A stretch of 64,000 nt of DNA, from assembly GCA_026396065.1 (NCBI GenBank), contig JAPLXO010000011.1, forward strand, positions 10,748 through 74,747. Reading direction: 5' to 3'. The notes beneath the pieces were generated by a model. The model searched no databases. It had not been told where the DNA came from and saw only the letters and a program-made list of their open reading frames with translations. Origin of the DNA: Candidatus Nomurabacteria bacterium. Lineage in GTDB: Bacteria > Patescibacteriota > Minisyncoccia > Phycocordibacterales > UBA9973. Positions 8,645-36,030 of the stretch are shown one piece after another. A program made the position numbers and the translations under genes. How positions within the stretch are numbered: position 1 is the stretch's first letter; each line of letters starts with the position of its first letter.

Positions 8645-8676
8645 CAAAAAAAAGCTCAAAAGAGCTTTTTTTTGTT
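8645..8676 (+). terminator. Rho-independent terminator after dnaK
   Basis: aaagctc-aaa-agagcttt plus T8. Confidence 0.7.
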
Positions 8677-8701
8677 TTTAGTAACTGATATAATAAAACC
8701 T

Positions 8702-10978: not shown

Positions 10979-11021
10979 TAAATTAAAGAATGTCGCGCTA
11001 AAAGGACTTACGCGACCTCAT

Positions 11022-11336
11022 TTGCAAAATCACATGTTTTGGAATAAAAATACAAATATACATACAGAAAGTACAGAAGAATTTTTTGACGACGAAAGTT
11101 TTAAAGAAATAAAGATGACCTTTATTGGTCGCGTGGTTACTATTATTATTGCTTCACTTTCATTGATCGCCGCACTTGCTTGGGAGGAAACACTTCACGA
11201 TTTATTCAGAGAATTTTTCACTAGTAGTGAATCAATACAAGGTAAACTACTTTATGCAATATTGGTGACTCTGCTTACTGTCATTGTTTCTGTTTTCGTC
11301 GGCCGAAGATTCCTTAAAAAAGCACGAAGGAAATAA
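11022..11336 (+). CDS. Small hypothetical membrane protein (two predicted TM helices)
   Basis: 104-aa ORF; hydrophobic stretches IGRVVTIIIASLSLIAALA and LLYAILVTLLTVIVSVFVG; between ATPase and paralog array. Confidence 0.4.
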   Translation: MQNHMFWNKNTNIHTESTEEFFDDESFKEIKMTFIGRVVTIIIASLSLIAALAWEETLHDLFREFFTSSESIQGKLLYAILVTLLTVIVSVFVGRRFLKKARRK

Positions 11337-11380
11337 ATACTTTTGCTGTATCAGTGTACTAGTACGATAGTATAAAAAAT

Positions 11381-13135: not shown

Positions 13136-13137
13136 TT

Positions 13138-14886: not shown

Positions 14887-14888
14887 TT

Positions 14889-14951
14889 ATGGAAACAAAA
14901 AACTGTCAAAATTGTCCCGATTTTTTAAAAATCGAGGATCCACGATTCTAA
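14889..14951 (+). pseudogene. Truncated ancestral N-terminal leader of paralog 3 (METKNCQNCPDFLKIEDPRF*), interrupted by a ~100-nt palindromic insert
   Basis: 20-codon ORF begins like the other paralogs (METKNCQNC). It then runs into the inserted element and a stop. ATGA overlap with the restart codon at 14951. Confidence 0.5.
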
Positions 14952-16684: not shown

Positions 16685-16686
16685 TT

Positions 16687-18459
16687 ATGGAAACACGAAA
16701 TTGTCAAAATTGTAAAAAAGATTTCACTATAGAGGTGGAGGATTTTAATTTTTATCAAAAGATAAAAGTTCCACCACCGACGTGGTGCCCAGAGTGTCGA
16801 CTTATTCGTCGTCTTGCTTATCGTGAAGAACGGTCTTTTTATAAAGATGAATGTGATAAATGCGGTCATGAAATAGTAAGTTTATTTGCACCAGAATCTG
16901 ATCTTCCTGTCTTTTGTTCTCCTTGTTGGTGGAGTGATAGTTGGGATGCTACATCTTATGGAAAAGACTACGATTTTTCTCGTCCATTTTTTGAGCAATT
17001 ATATCAATTAATGAAAGTCGTACCAAATCAGGCTACAAATACACGAAATTGTACTGATTGTAAATATTCTCATGGCAATATACGTTGTAAAAATTGTACT
17101 TTTGTTTTTGCTGGTATACAGTCTATTAATTGCTATTATTGTTCAACACCGATTTTCACAAAAGATTCTTTTGATTCAAGCTTTATTATAAATGCTGATC
17201 ATGTATATGAAGGTGTACATATAGGGGGAATATATAATTCAAAATTTATTTATTTTTCTGATGAATGCTTGGACTGTTCTTTTATTTTTAATTGTGTTGG
17301 ATGTTCAGATTGTTTTGGTTGTGTAAATTTAAGAAATCAAAAATATTGTATTTTTAATATTCAATATTCTAAAGAAGAATATAAAAAAGAAATTTTAAAA
17401 TGGGATCTAGGTAGTTATGAAAATTTACAAAAAGCACGAGAACTTTTTATGAAACTTTACCATAAAACACCAAGACGTTTTGCATTAATTTCAAATTCTA
17501 CAAATTGTATTGGTGATGATATTCAAAATACTAAAAATTGTAAAATATGTTTTTCTGCTACTCATGGAGTAGAAAATTCTAAATTTATTTTTCAATGTGG
17601 ATTATTGTTGAAAGATAGTTATGATGTGACACTAGGCGGAGATACTTCTGAGCTTGCATATGAAGTAAATGGTAGCACTCAATCACAAAAAAGTTTTTTT
17701 TGTAGGGGTAGTAATAACTTAAGAGATGTTGAATATTCAGATAATATATACAATGGATCCAATCTTTTTGGTTGCGTAAAATTGAGACATAAAAAATATT
17801 GTATTTTAAATAAACAATATACAAAAGAAGAATATGAAGATTTAATACCAAAAATAAAACAGCATATGATAGATATGCCATATGTTGATAAAAAAGGACG
17901 AGTCTATAAATATGGGGAATTTTTTCCAGTAGAAATAGCTTTATTTGCTTACAATGAAACCTGGGCACATCAATATTTTCCTATTACAAAAGAAAAAGCA
18001 ATAGAACAAGGTTACAATTGGCGTGATCCGATAGAAAGGGATTATAAAATAACTATTAACATTGGGAATTTGCATAATCATATTAAAGATGTGACTGATT
18101 CTATTTTAGATGAAGTGATAGAATGTGAACATAATGGAAAAAACTGTAATCAACAGTGCACTACTGCTTTTAGAATTTTACCAAATGAATTGGGTTTTTA
18201 TAGACAAATGAATTTGGCTTTGCCTAGAATATGCCCAAACTGTCGTCATTATGAAAGATTAAAAAAAACAAATCCACCAAAATTATGGCATGGAAAATGT
18301 ATGTGCGATGGTGTAGAATCAAGTAATAAAGAATATAGAAATACTATTAAGCATTTGCATGGAGAGGAGCCTTGCCAAAATGAATTTGAAACTTCTATAA
18401 GTAGTGAAAGAAAAGAAATAGTTTATTGTGAAAAATGTTATCAGGATGAATTTATATGA
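16687..18459 (+). CDS. Cysteine-rich zinc-ribbon protein, paralog 4 (590 aa)
   Basis: METRNCQNCKKDFTIEVEDFNFYQKIKVPPPTWCPECR...; ends KEIVYCEKCYQDEFI; first ATG is 16687 (the ORF-track start 16660 is an alternative codon). Confidence 0.7.
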   Translation: METRNCQNCKKDFTIEVEDFNFYQKIKVPPPTWCPECRLIRRLAYREERSFYKDECDKCGHEIVSLFAPESDLPVFCSPCWWSDSWDATSYGKDYDFSRPFFEQLYQLMKVVPNQATNTRNCTDCKYSHGNIRCKNCTFVFAGIQSINCYYCSTPIFTKDSFDSSFIINADHVYEGVHIGGIYNSKFIYFSDECLDCSFIFNCVGCSDCFGCVNLRNQKYCIFNIQYSKEEYKKEILKWDLGSYENLQKARELFMKLYHKTPRRFALISNSTNCIGDDIQNTKNCKICFSATHGVENSKFIFQCGLLLKDSYDVTLGGDTSELAYEVNGSTQSQKSFFCRGSNNLRDVEYSDNIYNGSNLFGCVKLRHKKYCILNKQYTKEEYEDLIPKIKQHMIDMPYVDKKGRVYKYGEFFPVEIALFAYNETWAHQYFPITKEKAIEQGYNWRDPIERDYKITINIGNLHNHIKDVTDSILDEVIECEHNGKNCNQQCTTAFRILPNELGFYRQMNLALPRICPNCRHYERLKKTNPPKLWHGKCMCDGVESSNKEYRNTIKHLHGEEPCQNEFETSISSERKEIVYCEKCYQDEFI

Positions 18460-18572
18460 ATAAAAAAACAAAATTAAAAATAGAATCTTTAAAATATTTA
18501 ATTCCAATCTTGTTAAAAACAATTAAATTTCGAATTAAAGTTTGGCGACGTAAAAACTTTTAAATAAGATAT

Positions 18573-20315
18573 ATGGAAACACGAAACTGTCAAAATTGTA
18601 AAAAAGATTTCACTATAGAGGTGGAGGATTTTAATTTTTATCAAAAGATAAAAGTTCCAGCGCCGACTTTTTGCCCAGATTGTAGAACAATACGTAGACT
18701 ATGTTGGAGAAATGAAATGTCTCTTTTTAAGAGAAAATGTGATGCTCCTGGACATGAAGAAATGCTCATTACATGTTTTCCTCCAGAAGAAAAACTCACT
18801 GTATATGATTCTACATCTTGGTGGGGTGATTCTTGGGATGCAATACAATATGGAAAAGAATATGATTTTTCCAAATCATTCTTTGAACAGTGGAGAGATT
18901 TAAGAAATAGTATTCCACTTCAGGCACTTTCAAACATAAAAGCGACTAACAGTGATTATTGTAATGTGGCAGAGGGCAGTAAAGATAGCTATATGTGTTC
19001 GGGTACTTGGAAAATAGAAAGAACTCTTTACTCTAATAGAGTTTCAGAAACAAAAGATTCCTCCGACTTGTATATAGTGTATCGTTCTGAGCTTTGTTAT
19101 GAAGATGTAATATGTTCTGATTGTTACCATTTAATGTACTCTTTAGATTGTAAAAGTTGTGTTGACTCATTTTTTCTCTATGATTGTGTGGGTTGCACAG
19201 ACTGTTTTGGTTGTAGTAATTTACGCAATAAATCATATTGCATGTGGAACGAGCAATTGTCTAGAGAAGAATATTTTCGTCATTTAGCAGAATATAATTT
19301 AAAAAATCATGAGACTATATCGATTTTAAAAAATAAATTTAAAGAAATTTGTTTGCAATCTTTACATCGTTTTTCACTTCAAATAAAATCAGTAAATTCT
19401 ACTGGTGACAATTTAGAAGGTACAAAAAATTGCAAAGTGTGTTTTGATGTTTCTGGAAAAATGGAAGATTTGAAATATGTGCATTGGACAGCTATTAGTG
19501 CAAAAGACGCTTATGATTCTGGCCCTGGTATTGGACAAGTTGAACTTGCATATGAATCCTTTGACACTGGAATAGGTAATTTCCGTAGTCTTTTTACGAG
19601 TGTTGTATATAGTTGTAACGATGTTGAATATTCATTTAATTGTCATGGTTCTTCGAATTTATTTGGTTGTATTGGAATTAGAAATAAAAAATACTGTATT
19701 TTAAATAAAGAATATACAAAAGGGGAATATGAAATATTATTGCCAAAAATTAAAGAGCAAATGATGCAAGTTCCATATATAGATAAAAAAGGAATTAATT
19801 ATAGATACGGTGAATTTTTTCCAGCAGAACTTTCTACTTTTTGTTATAACGAAACACAAGCACAAGATTATTTTCCAATAGATAAGGAATATGCATCTAA
19901 AATGGGATATCGTTGGCGTGATAAAAAGATAAGTGAATATCACATCACTATTGAATCAAAAGATCTTCCAGATTCTCTTGATGACGTTACAGATTCAATC
20001 ACTAATGAAATTATTGGATGTGAAAATAAAGATAAGATGAGTAATTATTGTAGAGGAGCATATAAAATAACTATCGATGAGCTGAATTTATATCGCAAGC
20101 TTGGAGTACCATTACCAAGACTTTGTTTTCTTTGTCGGCATGAAACTAGATTAAAAATGCGTAATCCAATGAAGCTTTGGAATAGACAGTGTATGTGTGA
20201 AAAAGAAAATCATCAACATAGTGGTAAATGTGAAATTACATTTGAAACATCATACGATCCTAATAGACCAGAAATAGTATATTGTGAAAAATGCTATCAA
20301 GCCGAGGTTTATTAG
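18573..20315 (+). CDS. Cysteine-rich zinc-ribbon protein, paralog 5 (580 aa)
   Basis: METRNCQNCKKDFTIEVEDFNFYQKIKVPAPTFCPDCR...; C-terminus NPMKLWNRQCMCEKENHQHSGKCEITFETSYDPNRPEIVYCEKCYQAEVY nearly identical to paralog 1. Confidence 0.7.
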   Translation: METRNCQNCKKDFTIEVEDFNFYQKIKVPAPTFCPDCRTIRRLCWRNEMSLFKRKCDAPGHEEMLITCFPPEEKLTVYDSTSWWGDSWDAIQYGKEYDFSKSFFEQWRDLRNSIPLQALSNIKATNSDYCNVAEGSKDSYMCSGTWKIERTLYSNRVSETKDSSDLYIVYRSELCYEDVICSDCYHLMYSLDCKSCVDSFFLYDCVGCTDCFGCSNLRNKSYCMWNEQLSREEYFRHLAEYNLKNHETISILKNKFKEICLQSLHRFSLQIKSVNSTGDNLEGTKNCKVCFDVSGKMEDLKYVHWTAISAKDAYDSGPGIGQVELAYESFDTGIGNFRSLFTSVVYSCNDVEYSFNCHGSSNLFGCIGIRNKKYCILNKEYTKGEYEILLPKIKEQMMQVPYIDKKGINYRYGEFFPAELSTFCYNETQAQDYFPIDKEYASKMGYRWRDKKISEYHITIESKDLPDSLDDVTDSITNEIIGCENKDKMSNYCRGAYKITIDELNLYRKLGVPLPRLCFLCRHETRLKMRNPMKLWNRQCMCEKENHQHSGKCEITFETSYDPNRPEIVYCEKCYQAEVY

Positions 20316-20325
20316 AATGAAGTCC

Positions 20326-20425
20326 ATGATAAGGGGTTTGGGTTGTATTTCTCCCTCTCCTTGATAAGGAGAGGCCGTCTACAGGTGTCCATCAACTACC
20401 GGTGGACTTTGGGTGAGGTGAATTA
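20326..20425. repeat. Intergenic repeat element B: hairpin ctccctctcctt-gata-aggagagg plus gggtgaggtgaat box
   Basis: Read directly; the same hairpin and box recur at 23776-23816; related G-box at 5755-5780. Confidence 0.65.
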
Positions 20426-20447
20426 TATGCTAAAATAATAATACATT

Positions 20448-21920
20448 ATGGGAAAGCCGAATCGAGTTCAGATAATCAAATATGGTCCACCACCACCAGA
20501 GCTTCCGGTGTTTGGAAAGGTGCCTCCTGAAGAGGTTTCTTTTATTGGACGTACGAATTACGTCGCAGCACTTGAAGAAAAGAAATTTATTTTCGGAATT
20601 AAGCGCGTTGACCGCCGAAGACATTTATATATCATTGGAAAGTCTGGGGTTGGAAAAACAAAGCTTCTAGAATTGATGCTTCGCCAAGATGTGACATATG
20701 GCCACGGTCTTTGTCTTATCGATCCACACGGTGACGTTATCGATGCAATGCTCGATTATATTCCAAAAGAGCGTGTTGAAGACGTTTGTATTATTGACCC
20801 TGCTGATATTGATTTCCCAGCATCTTTCAATCCTTTGGCAAATGTCGACCCAATGTTCAAATTTCAATTGACTCAAGGGTTAATCGAAGTTTTCCAAAAA
20901 CAATTCGGTGCAAACTGGACACCACGTCTCGAGCACGTTTTTCGTTTTACTTGTCTCGCATTACTCGATTATCCGTATGCTACGATGCGCGGAATGATCT
21001 CGATGTTGACAGATAGAAATTATCGTCAGAAAGTCGTGGAATATATTACAGACGACATGGTGAAAAGATTCTTCGCTATCGAATTCGCGGACTGGTCTGA
21101 AAAATTCGATACTGACGCTATTATTCCACTTGTTAATAAACTAGGTCAATTTCTTTCTGATCCCTTGCTTCGTAATATTTTCGGACAGAAGCAAAATAAA
21201 ATAGATATTAGTAAATTGATGAATGAACAAAAAATAATTTTTATTAATTTGTCTAAAGGGCGCCTCGGTGAAGAAAATTCGTCTTTCCTTGGTTCGATGT
21301 TTTTGACTAAAATTAAACAGGCCGGAATGGAGCGCGCTAGTATTGCCGAACGTGACCGTAAAGATTTTTATATTTATGTGGACGAGTTCCAAAACGTAGT
21401 GACACAAACTTTCGAAAACATTTTGTCGGAAGCTCGAAAATACGGTTTGAACCTTACTATGGCTCATCAGTATGTCGGTCAAATTATTCCAAAAGTTCAC
21501 CAAGCTGTACTTGGTAATACAGGTAGTGTCATTTGTTTTCGTGTAGGTGGAGAAGATGCTGTAAAATTGAAACCCGAATTTGAGCCATTATTCGGAGTGA
21601 AAGACATGATCAACCTCGCCGTAGCAGAATTTTATATCAAAATGACGATTGATGGAGAGTCTTACGATCCATTTTCTGCAGAGACACTTCGTGTATTACC
21701 TCCAAATCATCCTTCATATCGACAAGAAATTATAAATGCATCACGTAGAAAATATTCAATTCCAAAAGACGATGCGCAAAAATTGATTCAAGAGGAAGAA
21801 GCTACAATTATTCGAAGTGCAGAAGAAAAAGCTATTATTTCAGGAAAAGGCAAAAATGAAGTTGACGAAAATGAAAAGTCTGCAAAACCAGTCGCTAAAG
21901 AAGCTGAACCTATGATATAA
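20448..21920 (+). CDS. VirD4/TraG/TraD-like (FtsK-HerA superfamily) P-loop ATPase, paralog 2 (490 aa; no zinc ribbon or Pro-rich tail)
   Basis: Walker A IIGKSGVGKT; Walker B FYIYVDEFQNV; EARKYGLNLTMAHQYVGQI; collinear with 8702-10978 over ~450 aa. Confidence 0.6.
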   Translation: MGKPNRVQIIKYGPPPPELPVFGKVPPEEVSFIGRTNYVAALEEKKFIFGIKRVDRRRHLYIIGKSGVGKTKLLELMLRQDVTYGHGLCLIDPHGDVIDAMLDYIPKERVEDVCIIDPADIDFPASFNPLANVDPMFKFQLTQGLIEVFQKQFGANWTPRLEHVFRFTCLALLDYPYATMRGMISMLTDRNYRQKVVEYITDDMVKRFFAIEFADWSEKFDTDAIIPLVNKLGQFLSDPLLRNIFGQKQNKIDISKLMNEQKIIFINLSKGRLGEENSSFLGSMFLTKIKQAGMERASIAERDRKDFYIYVDEFQNVVTQTFENILSEARKYGLNLTMAHQYVGQIIPKVHQAVLGNTGSVICFRVGGEDAVKLKPEFEPLFGVKDMINLAVAEFYIKMTIDGESYDPFSAETLRVLPPNHPSYRQEIINASRRKYSIPKDDAQKLIQEEEATIIRSAEEKAIISGKGKNEVDENEKSAKPVAKEAEPMI

Positions 21921-21967
21921 ATTAAACAACATACTGACAAACTCCAGTATGTAAGGATGTTAAATTT

Positions 21968-22012
21968 ATGAATTCTGAAACAAAAAATTGCCAAAATTGT
22001 CCCGATTTTTAA
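21968..22012 (+). pseudogene. Truncated ancestral N-terminal leader of paralog 6 (MNSETKNCQNCPDF*), interrupted by the same insert as paralog 3
   Basis: Read directly; the same CQNC then cccgattttt... junction as at 14910. Confidence 0.5.
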
Positions 22013-22035
22013 AAAATCGAGGATCCACGATTCTA

Positions 22036-23775
22036 ATGAATTATAATCGGGATAAAAAAGATATGGAACATCAATCAGAAAGTAAAATATGTCAGAATTG
22101 TAAGACTTCGTTTATTATAGAACAAGAAGATTTTAATTTTTATGAAAAGATGAAAGTTCCTGCACCGACATGGTGTCCTGAATGTCGAATGGCACGTAGA
22201 TTCCTATTTATGAATACTTGGAATCTATATAGGCGAAATTGTGAAAAATGTGGGGAAAGTACACTTTCAATGTTTTCAGAAGATAAACCACATAAGGTTT
22301 TTTGTTTACCTTGTTGGTGGTCGGATGATTGGGATGGTACTGAGTATGCTATCAATTACGACCCCTCTCGTTCTTTTTTAGAACAGATGAAAGAGCTGGA
22401 ACTCAGAACACCTTGGATGGCTAATACTATGATGTATACAATGAATGTAAATAGCCCGTATTGTAATGCTACTGGTCCAGTAAAGAATTGCTACATGCTT
22501 TTTTGGGCAGATTATTGTGAAAATTCTTTTTACTCATCTTATTTGAATACTTTAAAAGATTCTATAGATTGTTATCGGGTAGCTCATAGTGAATTGTGCT
22601 ATGAAGGCACTGGTTTGAATAAATGTTACAGAACTTTCTTTTCGGAAGAGTGTGATTCTTGTACCGATACGTGGTTTTCAAGAGCTTGTTCTGGTTTAGT
22701 AAATTGTTTTGGTTGTATAAATTTAAGAAATAAAAATTATTGTATATTCAATGAACAATATTCTCAGGAAGATTATTTTAAAAAAGTAAAAGAATTTGAT
22801 CTAATATCTCATACGTCATTAGAAAAAATAAAAAAAGATGTTTTAGTGTTTTGGAGTAAATATCCAAGGCGATTTTATAACGGTAATGCGTTAAACAAAA
22901 ACGTTAGTGGTGATTATATTTATGAATCTAAAAATGCACAGAATTGTTTTATGGTTTCTGGGGCTGAAGATTGTAAATTTACTCAATTTGTAAGTATTCC
23001 AAAAGCCAAAGATTGTTATGATAATACTGGTTGGGGAGATGGTTCAGAAAGAATTTATGAGTCTACTGTTGTCGGCCTCGGAGCAAGTAATGTAAAATTT
23101 TCTAATGAATGCTGGCCTAATGCAATGAATACAGAATACTCTATCTATGCTATAGGTGGATGTAAGGATATTTTTGGATGTGTCAATTTAAAGAAAAAAC
23201 AATATTGTATTTTAAATAAACAGTATTCAAAGGAAGAATATGAAAAGTTAAAAGAAAAAATTATTAAAGATATGAATATAAATACTTTTATAGACTCAAA
23301 AAATAGAGTTTATAAATATGGTGATTCATTACCTATTGAATTGTCGCCATTTTCTTACAATGAATCAAATGCTGGTAAGTTTTTACCAATTACAAAAGAA
23401 AAAGCTTTAGAGCAAGGTTTCACTTGGTCAGAAGGAAAGGTGAATGAATATAAGATTACAGCCAAGGCGTCTGATTTACCAGATACAATCTCATATACTA
23501 CAGATGAGATACTAAACGACGTGTTTGAATGTGCTTCTTGTCAAAGAGCTTATAAATTTACTCTAGGTGAATTGAATTTAATGAGAAGACTTTCTTTACC
23601 ATTACCACATAAATGTTTTCATTGTCGTCAAGAATTTCGTTTTTCTAGATCTAATCAGGCTAGATTATACGATAGAAATTACATGAAATGCGGAGTAGAT
23701 TTAAAAACTTCTTATAATCCAGATAACACAGAAATAGTTTATTGTGAAAAATGCTATCAGCAGGAAGTATATTAG
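22036..23775 (+). CDS. Cysteine-rich zinc-ribbon protein, paralog 6 (579 aa from restart Met)
   Basis: MNYNRDKKDMEHQSESKICQNCKTSFII...; ends NTEIVYCEKCYQQEVY; the first 28 residues are encoded by nucleotides identical to paralog 3. Confidence 0.65.
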   Translation: MNYNRDKKDMEHQSESKICQNCKTSFIIEQEDFNFYEKMKVPAPTWCPECRMARRFLFMNTWNLYRRNCEKCGESTLSMFSEDKPHKVFCLPCWWSDDWDGTEYAINYDPSRSFLEQMKELELRTPWMANTMMYTMNVNSPYCNATGPVKNCYMLFWADYCENSFYSSYLNTLKDSIDCYRVAHSELCYEGTGLNKCYRTFFSEECDSCTDTWFSRACSGLVNCFGCINLRNKNYCIFNEQYSQEDYFKKVKEFDLISHTSLEKIKKDVLVFWSKYPRRFYNGNALNKNVSGDYIYESKNAQNCFMVSGAEDCKFTQFVSIPKAKDCYDNTGWGDGSERIYESTVVGLGASNVKFSNECWPNAMNTEYSIYAIGGCKDIFGCVNLKKKQYCILNKQYSKEEYEKLKEKIIKDMNINTFIDSKNRVYKYGDSLPIELSPFSYNESNAGKFLPITKEKALEQGFTWSEGKVNEYKITAKASDLPDTISYTTDEILNDVFECASCQRAYKFTLGELNLMRRLSLPLPHKCFHCRQEFRFSRSNQARLYDRNYMKCGVDLKTSYNPDNTEIVYCEKCYQQEVY

Positions 23776-28266: not shown

Positions 28267-28286
28267 AGATACATCTTACAAGAATC

Positions 28287-28315
28287 GCCCCGCTTTTGCA
28301 AAAGCAAAAGCGGGG
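28287..28315. promoter_or_regulatory. Perfect GC-rich 13-bp palindrome (gccccgcttttgc-aaa-gcaaaagcggggc) between divergent genes
   Basis: Read directly; ~20 nt upstream of the minus-strand start at 28266 and just upstream of the TTGACA-N17-TAGACT promoter-like hexamers (28329-28356) of the Rhs gene. Confidence 0.45.
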
Positions 28316-28362
28316 CAGATATAGGTGCTTGACACCTTTTTCCAAAGTGCTAGACTTTTTGT

Positions 28363-31300
28363 ATGCAAACATTAATTAGGCATCTGTCTAGTATTTTGTT
28401 CAAAAAGCCAAATTGGCATTTTTCTTCTAAAAATTTTATATTGAAAATTAAAAAATCACTATGCATCACAGTGATTTTTTCTTTTATATTCACTCCGACT
28501 TTTTCTATTTTTGCACAAGAAATAAAAGAAATTCCAAAAATAGCTGAAGTCGCTGTAAAAGAGACAACAATTTCAAGGGAAGCATCAAGAATTTTTCCAG
28601 ATAAAGAAAACACTGATTTAATAAAACCAATTACAAATACAATTATTTCTGTTGCAGAAGATATAAAAACAGACCCTGCATTAGAAAAGTTACCACCAGA
28701 GCAAACAGCGGTCGATTCAAATTCTGATTCAAATACAGATGAAAATAGTTCACAAAATAAAACACTCGCTCCAATTCTTCCTGGTGCAATTCCAGAAAAA
28801 CCACAAGATCAAAAGAAAGATGCTATTCCACAAATGAATTCTAATACTGGTGCTTTGAGTTATTCTTATTCAATTAATTTACCAAAAGGAACTGGCGGAT
28901 ATACACCAACACTTTCTTTAAATTACAACTCACAGAATGATGATAATTTTGGAAATCTTGGTCATGGTTGGGAATTGTCTATTCCAAATATTTCACGAAA
29001 AAATACACATGGAACCCAAGAACTTTATAATAGGAAAGACTTCAATTCTTCATTGGATGGAAATTTAGTAAAAGTTGATATCCAAGGGAATTTAGAAAAA
29101 TATTTACCTGAATCACTTTCTACTGCTTATAATACTTATATTTTAGATACCTCTACAAACATTTGGACCCTTACAACAAAAGATGGACAAATTTTTATTT
29201 TTGGTGCCAATACCGATAGCCGTCAAGATGATCCAAATAATCTCGCACATATTTATAAATGGATGCTTTCGTCTCAAATGGATAATAATTCAAATACAAT
29301 CACTTATACATACACAAAAAACCAAAATGCTATTTACCCACTAAACATTCATTATGCTATTTTTGACATAAATTTTTTAACAGAATCTCGTAATGATGAT
29401 TTACAACAAAAAACAACTAGCTTTTCAGTAACGAATGCATTTAGAATTAAAAATATTCAAATTTTTGAAAATTCAATTTTGAGAAATGACTATTCCTTAG
29501 AATATATTTATAGTCCTACAAATAATAAATCGCTATTACATGGTATAAAAATAAATAATACCAATGAAACAAGCTTTGATTATCAAAATACAATAACTGG
29601 TTGGACTTACGATACACATTTATCAAATGTTTTTCCTATTCCTTTTTTAAATCCTAATAACTCTCAGCCGTATGGAATGCGAGTAGCTGATATAAATGGC
29701 GATGGACTGCTCGATGTACTTTGTAGTAATTACAATTTACCTTCAAGCGGTTGTTATAACAATACATCAAAAATTTTTTTGAATACTGGAGATGGTTGGC
29801 AAGATGTAAGTAGTACTTGGACTTTTCCAATAAAACATGATTCTGCTATTAATGGCGGTACAGAATTAGAAAGATTTGCAGACAGTTCTTATGGCTCTAA
29901 TTCTAGCTATAGTACAGGGTTACAACTTATGGATATAAATGGAGATGGTTTAAATGATTTAATTCGAGGAAATGGTCAATTAAATTATATTTATTTAAAT
30001 AATGGTTCTGGTTGGGTATACAATACACAACTATCAAATGCTTTTCCGATGAGTTTTTTTAATAATAACAATCAAGATTATGGTATGCGAGTAGCCGATA
30101 TAAATGGTGATGGACTACTCGATGTACTTTGTAGTAATGGTATTAATGGTTATGGTAGTGGTTGCGGACAAACCAATCCTAAAATTTTTTTGAATACTGG
30201 AGATGGTTGGCAAGATGTAAGTAGTACTTGGACTTTTCCATTAAATCAATACAATATTATATATAATAATTTTCCAGTAAATACTGAATCTTTTGTAGAT
30301 TATTATAATAATCCTACAGGTTTACAAATTTTAGATGTAAATGGAGACGGTTTAAATGATTTAATTCGTACTGGTAATCCATATAAATTTATTTATATAA
30401 ATAATGGTCATGGGTGGACATATGATGCTTATATATCAAACGTTTTTCCTTTGACCTTTTTAAGTGTTGCTAATAATCATTTTGATCAAGAATATGGTAT
30501 GCGAGTAGGTGATATAAATGGTGACGGGCTATCTGATATTCTTTGTCATAATACAATGACTTCTGGCGCCTTATGTAATGATACTAATCCAAAAATTTAT
30601 ATAAATAAAATTAGTTGGCAAGACGTAAGTAGTACTTGGACTTTTCCAATAAGTAATTATGATTTGATACATTCCTATGTTAGCGTAAAAGAAGCATTTG
30701 GTAGTAATTATGGAAATATTACAGGGTTACAACTTATGGATATAAATGGAGATGGTTTAAATGATTTAATTCGTAGTCGCTATGCTTTCAATGATGTTTA
30801 TTTAAATAATAATCAAACCAAAGTTAATGTTTTAACTAAAATTACATACCTAACAGGAGGAATTACAGATATTGCTTATAAATCTTCAACAAAATATTTA
30901 GATTCATCTGGTAATCTTTTAAATCCCAACTTACCTTATCCGGTTCAAGTTGTTCAAAATATAAAAAATACAGACCCAGTTCGTAATATTGCAAGTCGAC
31001 ATCAGTATGAATATTCTGGTGGAGATAAAAGATATGATGGAGCATTTGATCATAAATTTTCTGGTTTTGGAAAAGTAATAGATAAAGAAACTAATTTTGA
31101 CGGATCTACAGTATATTCACAAAAAAATATTTATTATCATCAAGGAAATGGCGATGATTTAGCTAGTGGTGAAGCTAGTGATGCTAAAGCAAAAATAGGT
31201 CAAGCATATCGTACTGATATTTTAGATAATTCTGGAAATATTTTAGATAGTTCATACTCTAATACTAGTATAGTGAATATTTATACAGAGACGGGTGCTG

Positions 31301-34300
31301 GGTGTAATTATCCAGAAGTTTGTGATAGCGTCGACATGGTAAAGAGAGACGATAATATCCATGAAGTTTTCAACCATACAACAGGTGAACAAAGTAGCTC
31401 TGCTCAAAGTTTTACTTATGATAGTAATGGAAATATGATTGAACAAATAGAATATGAAAATGTTTCAGTTGATTCTCTTTTCAATTTTACGAATATTGGT
31501 GAAACACGAAAAAATGAAATGACTTATGTGTGTGGCGCGCTGGCATATGCCAGCGCGCCTAGATGTGAAGTATCCTCTGAAACACTCAAAGATAATAATA
31601 ATCTTATAGTAAAAAACGCTCTCCATTACTATGACAATTTACCATTTGGACAAATATCTACTGGTAATGGTACAAAAGATCAAAATTTAAAAATTGGTTA
31701 TACATACTCAGAACACAATTTTACTTTTGATAATTACGGAAATCTTTTGAGTGATACAGACCCACTTGGAAATGTAACAAGTTATATCTATGATGTAAAT
31801 AATATTTTACCTATCACTGTGACAAACGCTCTGGGACAAAGTAAACATTTTAGTTATGATTTTACTTTTGATGTACCACTTACAATTATAGATGAAAATA
31901 ATTTTACTTCAGACTTTACATACGATATTTTTGGTAGAAATTTGACTAAATCAATAAACAGCATTCTTTTAGAATCTAATATTTATAATGATGTGCCAAA
32001 CAATACATCAATTATTAAAACTTTTTATCCCACCTCTAACTCCACAACTATTTCTATTTCGTATTTAGATGGGCTAGGCAGAAAAATTCAAAATAAAACC
32101 TTACGTGAAGATGGTCAGTATGATACGATAGATACGATTTATTCAGATAGGGGACTAACAGATTCAAATTCACTACCTTATATTTCGTTCAATTCTACAT
32201 TATCACCAGCCACGGTGACACAGGCATTACTCACAAATTCAAATTATGATGTCTTGGGACGAGTAATTTCTACTACAAATGCACTAGGAACTTCTACAAT
32301 GTCCTACGATTTAAATGAAATGACTACCACGGATGCAAATGGTAAACAAAAGAAAATTACCACAGATAATTTTGGCCGATTAATATCAGTTACTGAATAT
32401 TTATCTGGCATACCTTACACCACACATTATACTTATCGTGCAGATGATGTATTACTAAATATTACAGATGCACTAGGTAATGTACGTAATTTTATTTATG
32501 ATAATAAAGGCGAAAAAAATTTAGCCGAAGATTTACATAATCCTACAGACACAAACTTTGGTGTTTATAGATATGATTATGATTTAGCTGGAAATATTAC
32601 TAGATATACAAACCCTAGACATCAAATGATATATTATACTTACGACACTTTAAACCGTTTACTTACTGAAGATTCAAATTCTACTGCCACTACAGATATT
32701 TCTTACTATTATGATTCTTGCCAAAATGGAATTACAAAACTTTGTAATGTTATAAAAACAAATACCAATACAAGTTATAAATATGATAACTTTGGAAATA
32801 TTGTTACAGAAAATCAAATGATCAATACTATGGTTTTTGAAACAAACTACGCATATTATGCTTCTGGATTATTAAGAAAGATAACATATCCAGATTCTTC
32901 TATTTCAGAGGCAAATTATACTTCTATGGGACGACCAGACAATATCTTATTTCAAAGTGATATAACATCTACACCAAGTATGATAGCTAGAATTAGTAGC
33001 TATCATACTTCTGGAAAACCAGACTCAATAATTTATGGTAATGGAGTAATTACAGATTTTGTTTATGATTCTACTAAAATGTATTCTTTGCAAAATCAAA
33101 AAAGTACAGATTTAGCAGGAAATATTTTTGAAAATCGCACTTATTCTTATGATGCAGTTTTGAATCCTACAAACATTACTGATATTGGAAATAATATAAA
33201 TGCAGGAAGTTCTGTCTACACTTATGATGATTTATATAGACTAACAACTTCTGTATTTACACCATCTGCGGGTACACCTATTACTAATTCGTGGACTTAT
33301 AATATTCTAGGAAATATTTTAACTCATAATGCCAATGTGTATGCTTATACTGGTAATATTGGAACATTTTACGCAAATCCACATGCGGTGACGAGTATTG
33401 GGCATGATTATTTATCTTATGACAAGTCTGGAAATTTAGTTAATTATTTAAATAAAAATTTTAGTTACAATTATAAAAATGAAATGACAAGTTCAAACAC
33501 AGGCACAATTTCGAATTATCTTTACAACCAATTTGGTTCCAGGGTATTTTATCAAAATGGTACCCATACAATTTACACTCCAAATGATATTTATACCTTA
33601 GAAGGAGCAGATAAGATTAAACAAATTTCTCTTGGTTCATTTCATGTTGCTGATGTTAAAAATTCTCTTGTAAACGGAGGGTTTGGACATCAAGGTGCAA
33701 TTCCACAACATGTTGATACTTTAAATTTCTTCCACACTGATACACTCGGCTCCACTCGCTTCGTGACGGATGAAAATGGTATAATAGAGCAAAGCTTGGA
33801 TTACAATCCATTTGGAGATATTCGAGTAGACAATCATAGTACTTTTAATTCAAAAGAAAAATTTATCGGCGAGAGGTTTGACGATGACACAGGTTTGAAT
33901 TATCTTAATGCGAGATATTACAATTCCGCCAACGGTCAATTCGTCTCCGAAGATCCAATGTTCTGGTCTATGCCAAAAGAATACTTCACTGATCCACAAC
34001 AGTGGAATAGTTACAGCTACGCGAGAAATAATCCGATTTCTCTTAGTGATCCAAGCGGAAAGTTTTCAATTTCTGAATTAGGTAACCAAGCAAAAAGCAT
34101 CGGAAGCAAAATCGCCGATTCAGTAAAAAATTTGTTTGGAGGGAATAAGGCAACTCCTTCTATACCAAAATATCTTGAGGCACCGAAAAATAACCAAAGT
34201 AGTGTTGGACATATTAGAAGTACCTACCTTTCTGTTACGTTTACTAAAGGGGCTGATAACCTTGTAAATCCTAAAACAGTCAATGGCTATGATAAAATCT

Positions 34301-34614
34301 TTAAGGAATCGAGTAAACTTGGTGTAAATTCAGTTAATTTTTATGCAACAACGAATCACGCTTCTGATACTGGTGGTTTCTCTTGGCACGATTCTGGTTT
34401 AGCTGGTGATATTAATATGGTAAATGGAATTCATGTTTCTAAAGATAATTCCTATGCAAAGATTTTACAAGAAGTATCTAGCAATCTTTCTGAAGTTAGA
34501 GAAAACTTTGGACCCTTTATGATTACACATAGCGAAAAGACTTATACACCTGCACAGTATCTAAAATTAAGTGATGGTCACCAAGATCACATACATACTT
34601 CTTTTAATCAATAA
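28363..34614 (+). CDS. Tc-toxin BC-like / Rhs-family polymorphic toxin: signal peptide, SpvB domain, FG-GAP-like repeats, YD repeats, RHS core, unrecognised C-terminal domain
   Basis: SpvB-like (TGALSYSYSINLPKGTGGYTPTLSLNYNS...GHGWELSIPNISRK); five repeats of DINGDGL(L/N)D; many YD repeats (Y.YD..GN); RHS core end (YNPFGDIRV...GLNYLNARYYNSANGQFVSEDP), then a ~220-aa unrecognised tail. An alternative in-frame TTG start at 28441 gives a cleaner signal peptide. Confidence 0.8.
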   Translation: MQTLIRHLSSILFKKPNWHFSSKNFILKIKKSLCITVIFSFIFTPTFSIFAQEIKEIPKIAEVAVKETTISREASRIFPDKENTDLIKPITNTIISVAEDIKTDPALEKLPPEQTAVDSNSDSNTDENSSQNKTLAPILPGAIPEKPQDQKKDAIPQMNSNTGALSYSYSINLPKGTGGYTPTLSLNYNSQNDDNFGNLGHGWELSIPNISRKNTHGTQELYNRKDFNSSLDGNLVKVDIQGNLEKYLPESLSTAYNTYILDTSTNIWTLTTKDGQIFIFGANTDSRQDDPNNLAHIYKWMLSSQMDNNSNTITYTYTKNQNAIYPLNIHYAIFDINFLTESRNDDLQQKTTSFSVTNAFRIKNIQIFENSILRNDYSLEYIYSPTNNKSLLHGIKINNTNETSFDYQNTITGWTYDTHLSNVFPIPFLNPNNSQPYGMRVADINGDGLLDVLCSNYNLPSSGCYNNTSKIFLNTGDGWQDVSSTWTFPIKHDSAINGGTELERFADSSYGSNSSYSTGLQLMDINGDGLNDLIRGNGQLNYIYLNNGSGWVYNTQLSNAFPMSFFNNNNQDYGMRVADINGDGLLDVLCSNGINGYGSGCGQTNPKIFLNTGDGWQDVSSTWTFPLNQYNIIYNNFPVNTESFVDYYNNPTGLQILDVNGDGLNDLIRTGNPYKFIYINNGHGWTYDAYISNVFPLTFLSVANNHFDQEYGMRVGDINGDGLSDILCHNTMTSGALCNDTNPKIYINKISWQDVSSTWTFPISNYDLIHSYVSVKEAFGSNYGNITGLQLMDINGDGLNDLIRSRYAFNDVYLNNNQTKVNVLTKITYLTGGITDIAYKSSTKYLDSSGNLLNPNLPYPVQVVQNIKNTDPVRNIASRHQYEYSGGDKRYDGAFDHKFSGFGKVIDKETNFDGSTVYSQKNIYYHQGNGDDLASGEASDAKAKIGQAYRTDILDNSGNILDSSYSNTSIVNIYTETGAGCNYPEVCDSVDMVKRDDNIHEVFNHTTGEQSSSAQSFTYDSNGNMIEQIEYENVSVDSLFNFTNIGETRKNEMTYVCGALAYASAPRCEVSSETLKDNNNLIVKNALHYYDNLPFGQISTGNGTKDQNLKIGYTYSEHNFTFDNYGNLLSDTDPLGNVTSYIYDVNNILPITVTNALGQSKHFSYDFTFDVPLTIIDENNFTSDFTYDIFGRNLTKSINSILLESNIYNDVPNNTSIIKTFYPTSNSTTISISYLDGLGRKIQNKTLREDGQYDTIDTIYSDRGLTDSNSLPYISFNSTLSPATVTQALLTNSNYDVLGRVISTTNALGTSTMSYDLNEMTTTDANGKQKKITTDNFGRLISVTEYLSGIPYTTHYTYRADDVLLNITDALGNVRNFIYDNKGEKNLAEDLHNPTDTNFGVYRYDYDLAGNITRYTNPRHQMIYYTYDTLNRLLTEDSNSTATTDISYYYDSCQNGITKLCNVIKTNTNTSYKYDNFGNIVTENQMINTMVFETNYAYYASGLLRKITYPDSSISEANYTSMGRPDNILFQSDITSTPSMIARISSYHTSGKPDSIIYGNGVITDFVYDSTKMYSLQNQKSTDLAGNIFENRTYSYDAVLNPTNITDIGNNINAGSSVYTYDDLYRLTTSVFTPSAGTPITNSWTYNILGNILTHNANVYAYTGNIGTFYANPHAVTSIGHDYLSYDKSGNLVNYLNKNFSYNYKNEMTSSNTGTISNYLYNQFGSRVFYQNGTHTIYTPNDIYTLEGADKIKQISLGSFHVADVKNSLVNGGFGHQGAIPQHVDTLNFFHTDTLGSTRFVTDENGIIEQSLDYNPFGDIRVDNHSTFNSKEKFIGERFDDDTGLNYLNARYYNSANGQFVSEDPMFWSMPKEYFTDPQQWNSYSYARNNPISLSDPSGKFSISELGNQAKSIGSKIADSVKNLFGGNKATPSIPKYLEAPKNNQSSVGHIRSTYLSVTFTKGADNLVNPKTVNGYDKIFKESSKLGVNSVNFYATTNHASDTGGFSWHDSGLAGDINMVNGIHVSKDNSYAKILQEVSSNLSEVRENFGPFMITHSEKTYTPAQYLKLSDGHQDHIHTSFNQ

Positions 34615-34616
34615 CA

Positions 34617-35063
34617 ATGAAAGACAATATAAATAAAATAAATATAGTGGAAAAGATTTGTATTTTGGTACTTTTTATTTTAATTTTCTATTTTATAAAT
34701 ATTTATTTTTTTAAAAAACCTAAAATTACCTTGGGAACTTTCACTGAAATCCCCAAAGATTTAATGGACTCAGGATGTACTTTCTACTGGAATCAAAGTG
34801 ACTTGGATAAAAAAGAAATAGCATTAATTGACACGTTCGGTTCTGGTGCTTTAATAGTTATTAACGGTAATTCTGAAAAATTAAAAGAGGTTCGTAATGG
34901 GGATCTTCTAAATTTTTCAAATGATAAATTTGAGGTAAAAATAAATATTATTAAAAGTACCTTAAATAATAACGAAGGTACTTACGAAGAAGGTATTTTA
35001 ACTGTTATTGGCAAAGATGGTGAAAGTACTTCAAAAAATGTTTTGGGTTATTGTGGATCATGA
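34617..35063 (+). CDS. Hypothetical membrane-anchored protein, candidate immunity protein for the Rhs C-terminal toxin
   Basis: 148 aa; N-terminal TM; starts 3 nt after the Rhs stop. Assignment is positional inference only. Confidence 0.4.
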   Translation: MKDNINKINIVEKICILVLFILIFYFINIYFFKKPKITLGTFTEIPKDLMDSGCTFYWNQSDLDKKEIALIDTFGSGALIVINGNSEKLKEVRNGDLLNFSNDKFEVKINIIKSTLNNNEGTYEEGILTVIGKDGESTSKNVLGYCGS

Positions 35064-35131: not shown

Positions 35132-35377
35132 ATGAAAAAATTAGTTATCTCGTCTTTTTTAGTTTTATCTTTGTTTGGTTTCATGGCTATTAGCTTAAAT
35201 ACAGCTGACGCTTCTGTCCGTGTACGTGGTTATACTACAAAACGTGGTACATATGTTGCTCCTTCATATCGTTCAAATCCAGATAGTTCTAGATATAATA
35301 ACTATTCAACAAAAGGCAATTACAATCCTTATACTGGTAAAAAAGGTTACACAGACCCTTACAAATATAATTGGTAA
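35132..35377 (+). CDS. Small secreted Tyr-rich hypothetical protein
   Basis: 81 aa; signal peptide ...NTADA/SV; repeated (R/K)GYT..(K/R)G.Y.PY units. Confidence 0.4.
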   Translation: MKKLVISSFLVLSLFGFMAISLNTADASVRVRGYTTKRGTYVAPSYRSNPDSSRYNNYSTKGNYNPYTGKKGYTDPYKYNW

Positions 35378-35382
35378 AAATT

Positions 35383-35757
35383 ATGGACAAAATAAATAAA
35401 TTATCTTTGCCCGCATCGATTTTAATAGCTAGTATTGTATTTGGTGGTTTTTATTACTTTAGCCAACTTAATAAACAAAAATCTATAGAACGAATGCAGG
35501 AAACTGCATTAGCCCAAGAAAAAAAATCAGAAAATAGTAGTGTTGAAAAACAAATTCAAGATGAATATAGAAAAGAATGTGAGGCATCACAAAATAAAAC
35601 AATAGAACAGCTAAATGATTTTTTAGATACTTGTTCAAAGTACAACTCAGAAAGTTATTGTTTAAACTCTGAAGCTGGTAAATTGTATCAAGGGGAACTA
35701 ACTCCAGAATCTATTCAAGCGTGTATTAACAATAAAAAGCTTAAGTATTCTCAATAG
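35383..35757 (+). CDS. Hypothetical membrane-anchored protein
   Basis: 124 aa from MDKINKL; one TM; four Cys in the exported part. Confidence 0.35.
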   Translation: MDKINKLSLPASILIASIVFGGFYYFSQLNKQKSIERMQETALAQEKKSENSSVEKQIQDEYRKECEASQNKTIEQLNDFLDTCSKYNSESYCLNSEAGKLYQGELTPESIQACINNKKLKYSQ

Positions 35758-35796
35758 GTTAAGTTGTGGAAATACTTTTAATAGAATTATATTAAT

Positions 35797-36030
35797 ATGG
35801 ATAATCTCAACTTTGGTAAACCACTACAAGATCATTCTCAAGAAGAATTGTTCTTTTTAATGAATAATAGTAGTTCAGAATTTGGTCTTCAAGCCCAATA
35901 CGAGCTTATGCGTAAATTATCGCTAGAAGATTCAAGGTCATCTAAGAGGTTCGGAAGATGGTCTCTTTTTATAGCCACCATTTCAATTTTTATTTCTATA
36001 ACTCTTAGCATTATTCAAATTTACCACTGA
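35797..36030 (+). CDS. Small hypothetical protein with C-terminal TM helix
   Basis: 77-aa ORF; tail-anchored topology. Confidence 0.3.
   Translation: MDNLNFGKPLQDHSQEELFFLMNNSSSEFGLQAQYELMRKLSLEDSRSSKRFGRWSLFIATISIFISITLSIIQIYH

Follow-up and report, generated by a model that had tools for sequence, protein, structure and literature searches.

Polymorphic toxins of the TcdB/TcaC class were defined in 2012 by a signal peptide, an SpvB domain, an integrin-like β-propeller and RHS repeats, with a C-terminal toxin that varies and an immunity gene next to it, and the combination of SpvB and propeller was treated as the determinant of a 'TcdB/TcaC export pathway' (Zhang, Aravind et al., Biol Direct, PMC3482391). 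For the related tripartite Tc (ABC) toxins, cargos of the TcC subunit are reported to be smaller than 40 kDa, and a census found TcC almost only in Proteobacteria and Firmicutes, with none reported from the Candidate Phyla Radiation (CPR) (PMC7861908). The characterised Tc cargos named in PMC9300711 and PMC7861908, among them the actin ADP-ribosyltransferase TccC3 and CNF1, are directed at eukaryotic host cells, and PMC10847048 describes toxin release as lysis dependent on a type 10 secretion system (T10SS). Bacterial teneurin-like proteins (BiTLP), a further group of YD shells, have been reported from six phyla, none of them CPR, and delivery and release from such Sec-targeted shells remain to be elucidated (PMC13018210). 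Here we describe a gene for a 2083-amino-acid (aa) Rhs protein in a 64-kb stretch of a Candidatus Nomurabacteria contig, which is referred to below as the window.

Little is understood about how CPR cells deal with, and harm, the bacteria on which they live. We consider it likely that the Rhs gene encodes a Sec-exported polymorphic toxin of the TcdB/TcaC class which carries a probable peptidoglycan-hydrolase cargo and forms a two-gene module with its cognate immunity gene.

The Rhs scaffold and its swapped tails

The open reading frame (ORF) at 28363..34614 (+) is single and intact, starts with ATG and spans 6.25 kb, in exact agreement with an earlier note made from the sequence of this stretch. 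A residue-for-residue identical protein is present at NCBI (P0001) under the name 'MAG: FG-GAP-like repeat-containing protein [Candidatus Nomurabacteria bacterium]' and bears a precomputed PF25023 TEN_YD-shell annotation. The features of the locus are as follows.

28329..28356 (+): promoter-like site TTGACA-16-(TG)TAGACT, a pattern match from a consensus scan (10/12 matches, extended -10 TG)
28363..28515 (+): putative N-terminal signal peptide, residues 1-51 (hydrophobicity scan; core LCITVIFSFIFTPTFSIFA, predicted cleavage IFA↓QE)
28516..28839 (+): linker of ~108 aa between signal peptide and SpvB domain, rich in E, K, P, T, S and I (composition)
28840..29331 (+): SpvB/TcB N-terminal domain, residues 160-323 (Pfam PF03534, E 1.2e-19)
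29668..30792 (+): FG-GAP (integrin-like) β-propeller region, residues ~436-810 (FG-GAP_3 PF13517, E 2.3e-18; FG-GAP PF01839, E 2.7e-14)
30721..31101 (+): TcdB_toxin_midN, residues 787-913 (Pfam PF12256, E 1.4e-20)
31102..33801 (+): RHS/YD-repeat shell, residues ~914-1813 (Pfam RHS_repeat PF05593, E 3.7e-18; NCBIfam YD_repeat_2x)
33802..34062 (+): Rhs-associated core with aspartyl autoprotease motifs, residues 1814-1899 (NCBIfam TIGR03696, E 5.5e-17)
34063..34209 (+): pre-toxin linker, residues 1901-1949, with amphipathic helix FSISELGNQAKSIGSKIADSVKNLFGG (helix 9-31 in a low-confidence single-sequence model)
34210..34611 (+): C-terminal toxin domain, residues 1950-2083, a predicted LAS-fold zinc peptidase
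34617..35063 (+): cognate immunity candidate of 148 aa, with its ATG 2 nt past the toxin stop codon

Judged from these matches, residues ~160-1900, which comprise the SpvB, FG-GAP, TcdB_toxin_midN, RHS and core regions, correspond to a natural TcB-TcC fusion. The profile search that the earlier note had suggested thus bears out its SpvB, FG-GAP, YD/RHS and Rhs-core assignments, and adds TcdB_toxin_midN. Its count of five FG-GAP-like repeats has to be corrected to six, based on the D[IV]NGDG motifs at residues 443, 524, 579, 658, 717 and 793, which group into three double units of ~135 aa. Tandem Repeats Finder detects no DNA-level tandem repeat beneath the three units, indicating that they are old duplications, and a recent intragenic duplication was ruled out on this result.

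Sequence searches of the PDB with the whole protein return Rhs proteins (7q97, 8h8a), YenB, TcdB1, Tse5, SpvB and a bacterial teneurin-like protein. Residues 168-320 match YenB, TcdB1 and SpvB, while the shell region aligns with the teneurin-like protein 9pt5 across residues 1119-1906 and also with Rhs 7q97. The resemblance of core and shell to RhsA, Tse5 and Tse15, effectors of type VI secretion systems (T6SS), would be expected if the protein were an Rhs effector delivered by a T6SS or another contractile injection machine. However, its N-terminus consists of a Sec-type signal followed by SpvB, and a Pfam scan of the protein finds no PAAR, VgrG-binding or DUF4150-type domain. As T6SS, sheath and baseplate genes are also missing from the window ORFs scanned and from the loci of four relatives (see below), we give this explanation next to no weight.

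The core contains ARYYN at residue 1850, SEDP at 1862-1865 and NNPISLSDPSGK at 1889-1900, the latter ending in DPSGK (1896-1900). Both Asp-Pro motifs of the aspartyl protease are present (SED1864P and SD1896PSG) and, from what is known of TccC3 and Rhs proteins, presumably constitute the catalytic pair. The best PDB match for the core region is BiTLP (…NLYAYVHNNPVTLRDPSG aligned with …NSYSYARNNPISLSDPSG, E 1e-11), where the query motif is paired with NNPVTLRDPSG. Because four deposited shell chains, namely 9ifo_A (2144 aa), Tse5 8cp6_B (1121 aa), TccC2 6l7i_G (664 aa) and TcdB2-TccC3 4o9x_A (2191 aa), terminate one residue past the aligned glycine, autoproteolytic cleavage is predicted between K1900 and F1901. 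The tail following this site comprises 183 aa with a mass of 19.9 kDa and an isoelectric point of 8.1; the '~220 further residues' given in the earlier note fit a count from the first Asp-Pro motif (SEDP 1862) and not one from the predicted cut.

When the query is compared with 45 relatives by BLASTP, similarity stops at residues 1899-1926 in about 40 cases, 28 of which break off at 1899-1903. Past the break, those relatives continue with 54-294 residues for which no alignment is obtained. In a comparison of 25 of these tails the mean column identity is 13%. Pfam recognises among them two canonical VanY/Peptidase_M15_4 domains, a barnase-type ribonuclease, a colicin E5 tRNase and two alpha/beta hydrolases of lipase-like type, and leaves the others unassigned. 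At the level of sequence, such a similarity break at the core is a polymorphic-toxin hallmark. The interpretation as a TcB-TcC-fusion-like or Rhs polymorphic toxin, already put forward in the earlier note, is thus supported by the break at the DPxG core, by the 25 unrelated tails and by the cognate small ORF described below. The earlier note had not recognised the nature of the cargo, the immunity gene or the CPR origin.

The best full-length relatives share 28-37% identity over most of their length and are mostly CPR proteins. Those named derive from the Patescibacteria group, Taylorbacteria, Nomurabacteria, Kaiserbacteria, Peregrinibacteria and Parcubacteria and have the same Pfam content as the query (SpvB, FG-GAP, TcdB_midN, RHS), with named non-CPR relatives (Smithellaceae, Leptospira, Actinomycetia, Chryseobacterium) appearing only lower in the list. 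In three CPR relatives covered with flanks of 10 kb, the Rhs gene is immediately followed by a small ORF, and no TcA-like or other conserved large partner gene is found in these flanks. At L012 (17190-20741), in the locus of relative P0009, a colicin-E5-tipped Rhs gene is followed by Imm40, a known pair, and then by an orphan 439-aa fragment, consisting of TEN_YD-shell and CHAP peptidoglycan hydrolase, and a 177-aa ORF. This displaced toxin/immunity cassette demonstrates that CPR Rhs loci undergo cargo replacement. Given the many CPR relatives that combine the scaffold with swapped cargos (RNases, lipase-like hydrolases, VanY, CHAP), the locus is best seen as part of ordinary polymorphic-toxin warfare. 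A Nomurabacteria genome here retains a 6.25-kb encapsulated-toxin gene of a class known from larger genomes. Its presence in a streamlined gene set, remarked on in the earlier note, is less exceptional than implied, since the class was already defined (PMC3482391) and is common among CPR relatives.

Alternatively, the protein could chiefly serve an epibiotic CPR cell as an adhesin on its surface or in attachment to a host, with a teneurin-like function. The integrin-like propeller and the YD shell would then mediate contact between cells, the LAS domain would locally remodel the wall of the host or of the cell itself where the two touch instead of killing competitors, and the small ORF would restrain this activity. 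The N-terminal signal or anchor, the flexible stalk of ~108 aa and the integrin-like propeller would suit such a role, as would a cargo that probably acts on the cell wall, since this is what an epibiont has to get through. CPR lineages, in which the scaffold is widespread, are presumed to live attached to hosts (PMC13622651), and adhesion or signalling has been proposed for bacterial teneurin-like YD proteins (PMC13018210). However, the swapped tails of the relatives (RNases, lipase-like hydrolases, peptidases) and their cognate immunity genes, together with the orphan cassette, are a signature of interbacterial antagonism and not of a fixed attachment function. Moreover, free-living Bacteroidota carry this toxin/immunity pair on scaffolds unrelated to that of the query, and the Pfam scan of the protein shows no adhesion-specific domain (lectin, cohesin, SLH). 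We therefore regard a primary role in attachment as unlikely, although worth keeping in mind.

The C-terminal toxin domain and its partner gene

No significant Pfam, NCBIfam or PDB sequence match was obtained for the tail, the only Pfam hint being Peptidase_M15_4 at the SWHDSGLAGD site (E 0.056-0.085), and a word-index homologue search with the tail found nothing. An exhaustive HMMER scan of 1.84 billion cluster representatives retrieved 93 proteins at E ≤ 1e-3, 25 of them at E ≤ 1e-10. In the 92 carriers besides the query (71 to 2271 aa) the match lies nearly always at the C-terminus or at most ~20 residues from it. Six large carriers scanned with Pfam are built differently: P0121 has SpvB, FG-GAP and RHS domains, P0130 and P0133 have RHS only and P0129 has DUF6443, and no Pfam match is seen in P0127 and P0159. 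The domain is also found on short proteins. This C-terminal position on differing scaffolds is the behaviour of a mobile toxin module. A locus scan of GTDB representatives with a narrower toxin alignment (A2) gave four loci, all from Bacteroidota, so that the taxonomic spread of the module is under-sampled.

An alignment of 39 family members contains six invariant columns, corresponding to H2009, D2016, P2051, H2073, H2076 and H2078. The family motifs are S-x-H-x(6-9)-D, ENxGP and H-x-x-H-x-H, and appear in the query as S-W-H2009-x6-D2016, ENFGP (2047-2051) and H2073-x2-H2076-x-H2078. Sub-threshold Pfam matches of more than one member are to Peptidase_M15_4 (9/39), M15_3, VanY, HH_signal, DUF5715 and Extensin-like_C, as well as to the unrelated family HP1454-like_C; one member matches M74. 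We take M15_3, M15_4, VanY, HH_signal and M74 to be LAS families. In a profile search of the PDB the H-x-D and H-x-H columns of the family align with the segments SLHYEGRAVD and AHIH of Sonic hedgehog, which presumably contain its zinc-site residues. This is further supported by structure prediction. The alignment-based model of the tail is confident, its top fold matches are all LAS, and H-x(3-9)-D and H-x-H motifs accompany the fold; a single-sequence AlphaFold2 model has a predicted local distance difference test score of 36.8, and the fold is read only from the alignment-based model. In that model the tail carries a LAS fold together with the invariant metal- and catalytic-type residues. 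From the LAS superfamily and the exported immunity partner we infer that the tail cuts peptidoglycan peptides, and the cargo is probably a peptidoglycan hydrolase.

The 148-aa ORF downstream of the toxin has an N-terminal membrane helix and a predicted extracytoplasmic domain with conserved Cys54 and Cys146. Neither the ORF nor its family has a Pfam, NCBIfam or PDB match, and a word-index search with the ORF returned only itself. Of the proteins that carry the toxin module, P0121 (2043 aa) is the closest; it shares the scaffold (~36% identity to the query in the longest aligned segment, residues 147-2083) and has a toxin domain that is 59% identical. The ORF following it encodes 144 aa and is 46% identical to the 148-aa ORF of the window (E 4e-36). 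Three more distant carriers, a 1523-aa protein without Pfam match, a 2271-aa RHS protein beside a Por_Secre_tail gene and a 367-aa short form, each have a homologous small ORF directly downstream.

We then built a hidden Markov model (HMM) from five of the small ORFs and searched all stop-to-stop ORFs of ten loci. It identifies exactly one ORF per locus, always directly after the toxin match, at 10/10 loci, two of which score identically and probably represent one sequence. The Bacteroidota loci L007-L009, which were outside the building set, are matched with E-values of 1.8e-31, 4.7e-24 and 4e-32. The pairing of toxin and small ORF is therefore strict, independent of the scaffold and maintained across phyla. 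Across all six frames of the window the HMMs give one toxin and one immunity match only, with no orphan cassettes.

A signal peptide, lipobox or membrane helix is present in four of the five ORFs first compared, and an N-terminal hydrophobic segment in all eight aligned copies (8/8; in L002 only with a re-read upstream start). The leaders differ: L002-L004 have a lipobox-like signal, L007-L009 a plain hydrophobic leader and the two CPR copies a membrane helix. F42, P46, C54, F56 and C146 are invariant in the eight aligned sequences. Two invariant cysteines and an export segment fit an extracytoplasmic protein, and an exported partner that tracks the toxin and not the scaffold is what is expected of immunity against a toxin acting outside the cytoplasmic membrane. 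From these sequence features the 148-aa ORF is the probable cognate immunity protein.

These data also bear on a reading in which the C-terminal domain has lost catalysis and serves for binding as a LAS/Hedgehog-like module, or in which the gene is a decaying relic, with an unrelated membrane protein encoded downstream. Hedgehog-N, the top fold match, is a signalling ligand, and the domain reaches no curated peptidase family threshold. On the other hand, the 6.25-kb ORF is intact, the metal-binding and catalytic-type residues are all invariant in 39 diverse sequences, the downstream ORF co-occurs with the module at 10/10 loci across phyla, and the syntenic relative keeps the pair at 59% (toxin) and 46% (small ORF) identity. 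Thus, loss of function is very unlikely.

The region between cleavage site and toxin domain differs among relatives. Pre-toxin linkers similar to that of the query precede two canonical VanY-type tails, P0005 and P0037, and all three LAS-type tails open with an amphipathic helix ending in ..F.N.FG.N.K. Several other tails (e.g. P0004, P0007) open instead with glycine-zipper-like hydrophobic helices directly past the cleavage site. The linkers may be specific to the compartment that the cargo must reach.

Export, delivery and genomic context

In the mechanism we propose, Sec would export the 2083-aa protein to the cell surface via its N-terminal signal peptide. CPR bacteria probably lack an outer membrane. 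By analogy, residues ~160-1900 would enclose the C-terminal tail of ~20 kDa in a closed YD shell, and cleavage at K1900↓F1901 by the core aspartyl protease would leave the tail loose inside the shell. After an opening of the shell that would have to occur without TcA, the LAS-type zinc peptidase may attack peptide stems or cross-links in the peptidoglycan of a neighbouring cell, either host or competitor. Peptidoglycan is the most likely target because the tail is a LAS-type zinc peptidase, and no membrane translocator would be needed because this target lies outside the cytoplasmic membrane. The producer, which makes peptidoglycan itself, would be shielded by the co-transcribed 148-aa protein, anchored in the membrane with its two-Cys domain facing outward.

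A more specific version of this mechanism is that the contact weapon of CPR epibionts is a BC-type cocoon, self-contained and exported by Sec, in which the FG-GAP propeller gate opens on touching a host or rival and releases the LAS peptidase. We know of no T6SS or Tc translocator in CPR epibionts. We consider this version rather unlikely, but it would have clear consequences: the peptidoglycan of the partner would be breached, which would help the parasite to feed or attach, and there would be a TcA-independent route of YD-shell release as well as a molecular entry point to the study of attacks by ultra-small bacteria on their hosts.

Export is suggested by the N-terminus. A hydrophobic segment with a maximum Kyte-Doolittle value of 2.05 over 15 aa ends in IFA↓QE, consistent with the signal peptide read earlier, and its core LCITVIFSFIFTPTFSIFA is preceded by a long and basic n-region. 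A strongly hydrophobic N-terminal segment is present in 37 of 46 proteins (query plus 45 relatives), and several of the exceptions look N-terminally truncated, e.g. P0005, which starts with VATVFAQEA. An in-frame TTG at L27 would provide an alternative start and a more conventional, textbook signal peptide; M1 was kept since relatives have long n-regions and the promoter-like site abuts M1. For the following linker, Pfam finds no match within residues 1-159, and comparable P/T/S-rich stretches occupy this position in relatives. Based on its composition, the linker is probably a flexible stalk.

In 24 of 47 proteins (query, 45 relatives and P0121) the signal ends with a P-x(1-5)-[FLYI]-A-[QE]-E-type motif, which reads PTFSIFA↓QE in the query and e.g. 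PLVPVFAQE or PLAPVFAQE in relatives. This recurrent P..FA[QE]E-type motif is often preceded by a long basic n-region. It could be a family-specific sorting or cleavage signal and not a generic Sec signal.

To look for delivery genes, every window ORF of at least 560 aa and many smaller ones were scanned with Pfam, as were the called genes at the loci of relatives. There is no TcA-like gene in the 64-kb window nor within 8-10 kb of four relatives, and neither the window ORFs scanned nor the four relatives' loci include a gene for PAAR, VgrG, T6SS, sheath or baseplate components. Besides the Rhs gene, the window ORFs of at least 560 aa encode Hsp70, a VirD4-like ATPase, paralogs of ~580-640 aa, PBP2, a histidine kinase and an M1 peptidase. 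This agrees with the earlier assessment that an Rhs-type mechanism is likelier than a full Tc complex. Nevertheless, SpvB, FG-GAP and TcdB_toxin_midN are TcB hallmarks, the Rhs core is a TcC hallmark, and the PDB matches include YenB, TcdB1, TccC2 and TcdB2-TccC3. The protein could thus be the BC component of a genuine tripartite Tc toxin whose TcA pentamer, encoded elsewhere, docks on the propeller and injects the cargo into a eukaryotic or other cell, all the more as the inspected stretch represents 64 of the 147.7 kb of the contig. Apart from the missing TcA-like ORF, this is contradicted by the Sec-type signal peptide, as opposed to the T10SS-dependent lysis described for Tc release (PMC10847048), and by the census that places TcC almost only in Proteobacteria and Firmicutes (PMC7861908). 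It is also contradicted by the cargo: a peptidoglycan-type peptidase with an exported immunity partner argues for a bacterial target. Taken together, membership in a Tc complex appears extremely unlikely.

Several observations weigh against our preferred explanation, an exported Rhs toxin with a wall peptidase as cargo. The n-region of the signal peptide is unusually long, and the signal peptide was called by eye and from hydrophobicity only. No release mechanism is known for Sec-exported YD shells, a gap that is equally stated for teneurin-like proteins (PMC13018210), and a TcA-like or other delivery gene may lie at a distance, as 64 kb of the 147.7-kb contig are covered. Concerning the cargo, the best Pfam match, Peptidase_M15_4, reaches 14.5 bits compared to a gathering cutoff of 25. 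The best fold match, Hedgehog-N, is a signalling ligand and no proven peptidoglycan hydrolase, and the substrate is therefore deduced from the superfamily. With hhalign, only a 22-residue zinc loop aligns with the canonical VanY tail of a CPR relative, which indicates that the module is a distinct LAS branch and not a plain VanY. An assignment of the tail as an ordinary VanY/M15 peptidase was rejected on these scores (14.5 vs 25 bits; 22 columns in hhalign).

The window has a G+C content of ~31% and contains genes for rpoA, DnaK, DnaJ, PBP2, agmatinase, CysRS, CorA, RecR, DnaB, further aminoacyl-tRNA synthetases, an M1 peptidase, an MraY-like transferase, FtsW and MurG, interspersed with unknowns. 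As it lies among housekeeping genes, the Rhs gene is chromosomal and belongs to a peptidoglycan-making CPR bacterium, the peptidoglycan synthesis genes in the window being PBP2, MraY-like, FtsW and MurG. Rfam and tRNA scans of the window were empty. The locus of P0121 (L001) is syntenic, with rpoA, rplQ, rplM, rpsI … GrpE, DnaK and DnaJ followed by the Rhs gene.

Upstream of the Rhs gene, the promoter-like site ends 6 nt before the ATG and no Shine-Dalgarno sequence is seen on reading the sequence. Because of this arrangement the Rhs mRNA may be leaderless. A perfect GC-rich palindrome (GCCCCGCTTTTGC-AAAA-GCAAAAGCGGGGC, 14-bp stem with 9 G-C pairs) is located at 28286-28317, within the divergent intergenic stretch that separates the agmatinase start from the promoter-like site of rhs, in a genome of ~31% G+C. 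It could be a protein-binding site or a bidirectional hairpin.

Downstream of the immunity gene, 35132-36030 contains small ORFs of 81, 128 and 77 aa, each with a signal peptide or membrane segment and without above-threshold Pfam match; the 81-aa ORF encodes a predicted secreted Tyr/Arg/Asn-rich peptide. At L001, the third gene downstream from the Rhs/immunity pair of P0121 (16320-17621) encodes a predicted exported protein of 433 aa, which matches Hint_2 weakly and has no counterpart in the window. Elsewhere in the window, two VirD4/TraG-like coupling-ATPase paralogs (8672-10978 and 20448-21920) are 45% identical. Seven paralogs of ~580-640 aa, starting at 11381, 13111, 14753, 16660, 18573, 21988 and 55934, are 30-46% identical to each other. 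A treble-clef zinc finger, zf_Tbcl_2, is found in three of these seven and in the first ATPase, the paralogs being otherwise without Pfam match. Together these genes occupy 8672-23775 and 55934-57691, with a block between DnaK and DnaJ. Since DnaK and DnaJ are adjacent in the syntenic L001, the block looks like a lineage-specific insertion or expansion.

Comparison with known systems

Literature searches for Rhs, YD or polymorphic toxins in CPR bacteria returned passing mentions only. The nearest is a one-sentence description of a Saccharibacteria Rhs/YD toxin, a secreted CPR polymorphic toxin of ~2500 aa with a neighbouring immunity gene (Starr et al. 2018, PMC6031116). It differs from the protein described here by its PA14 and galactose-binding domains and by its CPR lineage, and its cargo is not named.

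The cargo was compared with the LAS peptidoglycan peptidases MepA (M74), VldE, the Streptomyces Zn DD-peptidase, VanX/VanY/VanXY and LdcB and with the LAS endolysins Ply500, LysB4 and T5 (M15). Similarity of the tail to known LAS peptidases stays below every Pfam gathering score, and the tail differs from them by an extra invariant histidine (H-x-x-H-x-H) and by the ENxGP motif.

With the cocoons of Tc toxins, e.g. Photorhabdus TcdB2-TccC3 and Yersinia YenB-YenC2, the protein shares SpvB, FG-GAP, TcdB mid and RHS regions and the DPxG core. At ~1740 aa, its shell region falls short of the lengths of TcdB2-TccC3 fusion constructs deposited in the PDB (2128-2439 aa). To our knowledge, Tc subunits lack signal peptides. 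In contrast, the query is a single polypeptide with a Sec-type signal peptide, and its cargo is a predicted wall peptidase of antibacterial type with an immunity gene. Because of the signal peptide, the antibacterial type of cargo and the lack of a TcA gene in the 64-kb window and near the four relatives, it is not a strict member of the Tc complexes. Its ~20-kDa tail does lie below the ~40-kDa limit for Tc cargos (PMC7861908).

BiTLP (PDB 9IFO/9PT5; Raoelijaona et al. 2026, PMC13018210) has in common with the query the Sec targeting, the YD shell, a polymorphic C-terminal domain (~15-20 kDa), an adjacent immunity gene and the lack of obvious delivery machinery. It differs in combining an FN-plug and an NHL propeller with the YD shell and in having mostly a TIP domain, whereas the query has SpvB, FG-GAP and TcdB_midN. 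Having SpvB and an FG-GAP propeller instead of FN-plug and NHL, with no NHL match in the Pfam scan, the query is not a teneurin-like protein. The CPR scaffolds would be a second group of Sec-exported YD shells, besides the bacterial teneurin-like proteins, whose translocator-free cargo release is unexplained.

The closest described system is the TcdB/TcaC class. CPR/Patescibacteria are not in the phyletic list of PMC3482391, a whole-word search of the first 300,000 characters of that paper returns neither LAS nor VanY, and the immunity family matches no Pfam model. What is absent from the curated resources Pfam and NCBIfam is therefore the LAS toxin branch and its two-Cys immunity family, both shared with Bacteroidota, which provide a clean and testable toxin/immunity pair. 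The scaffold itself is an already known kind of weapon: the locus has every defining feature of the TcdB/TcaC class, with the protective function of its immunity gene predicted from the gene pairing.

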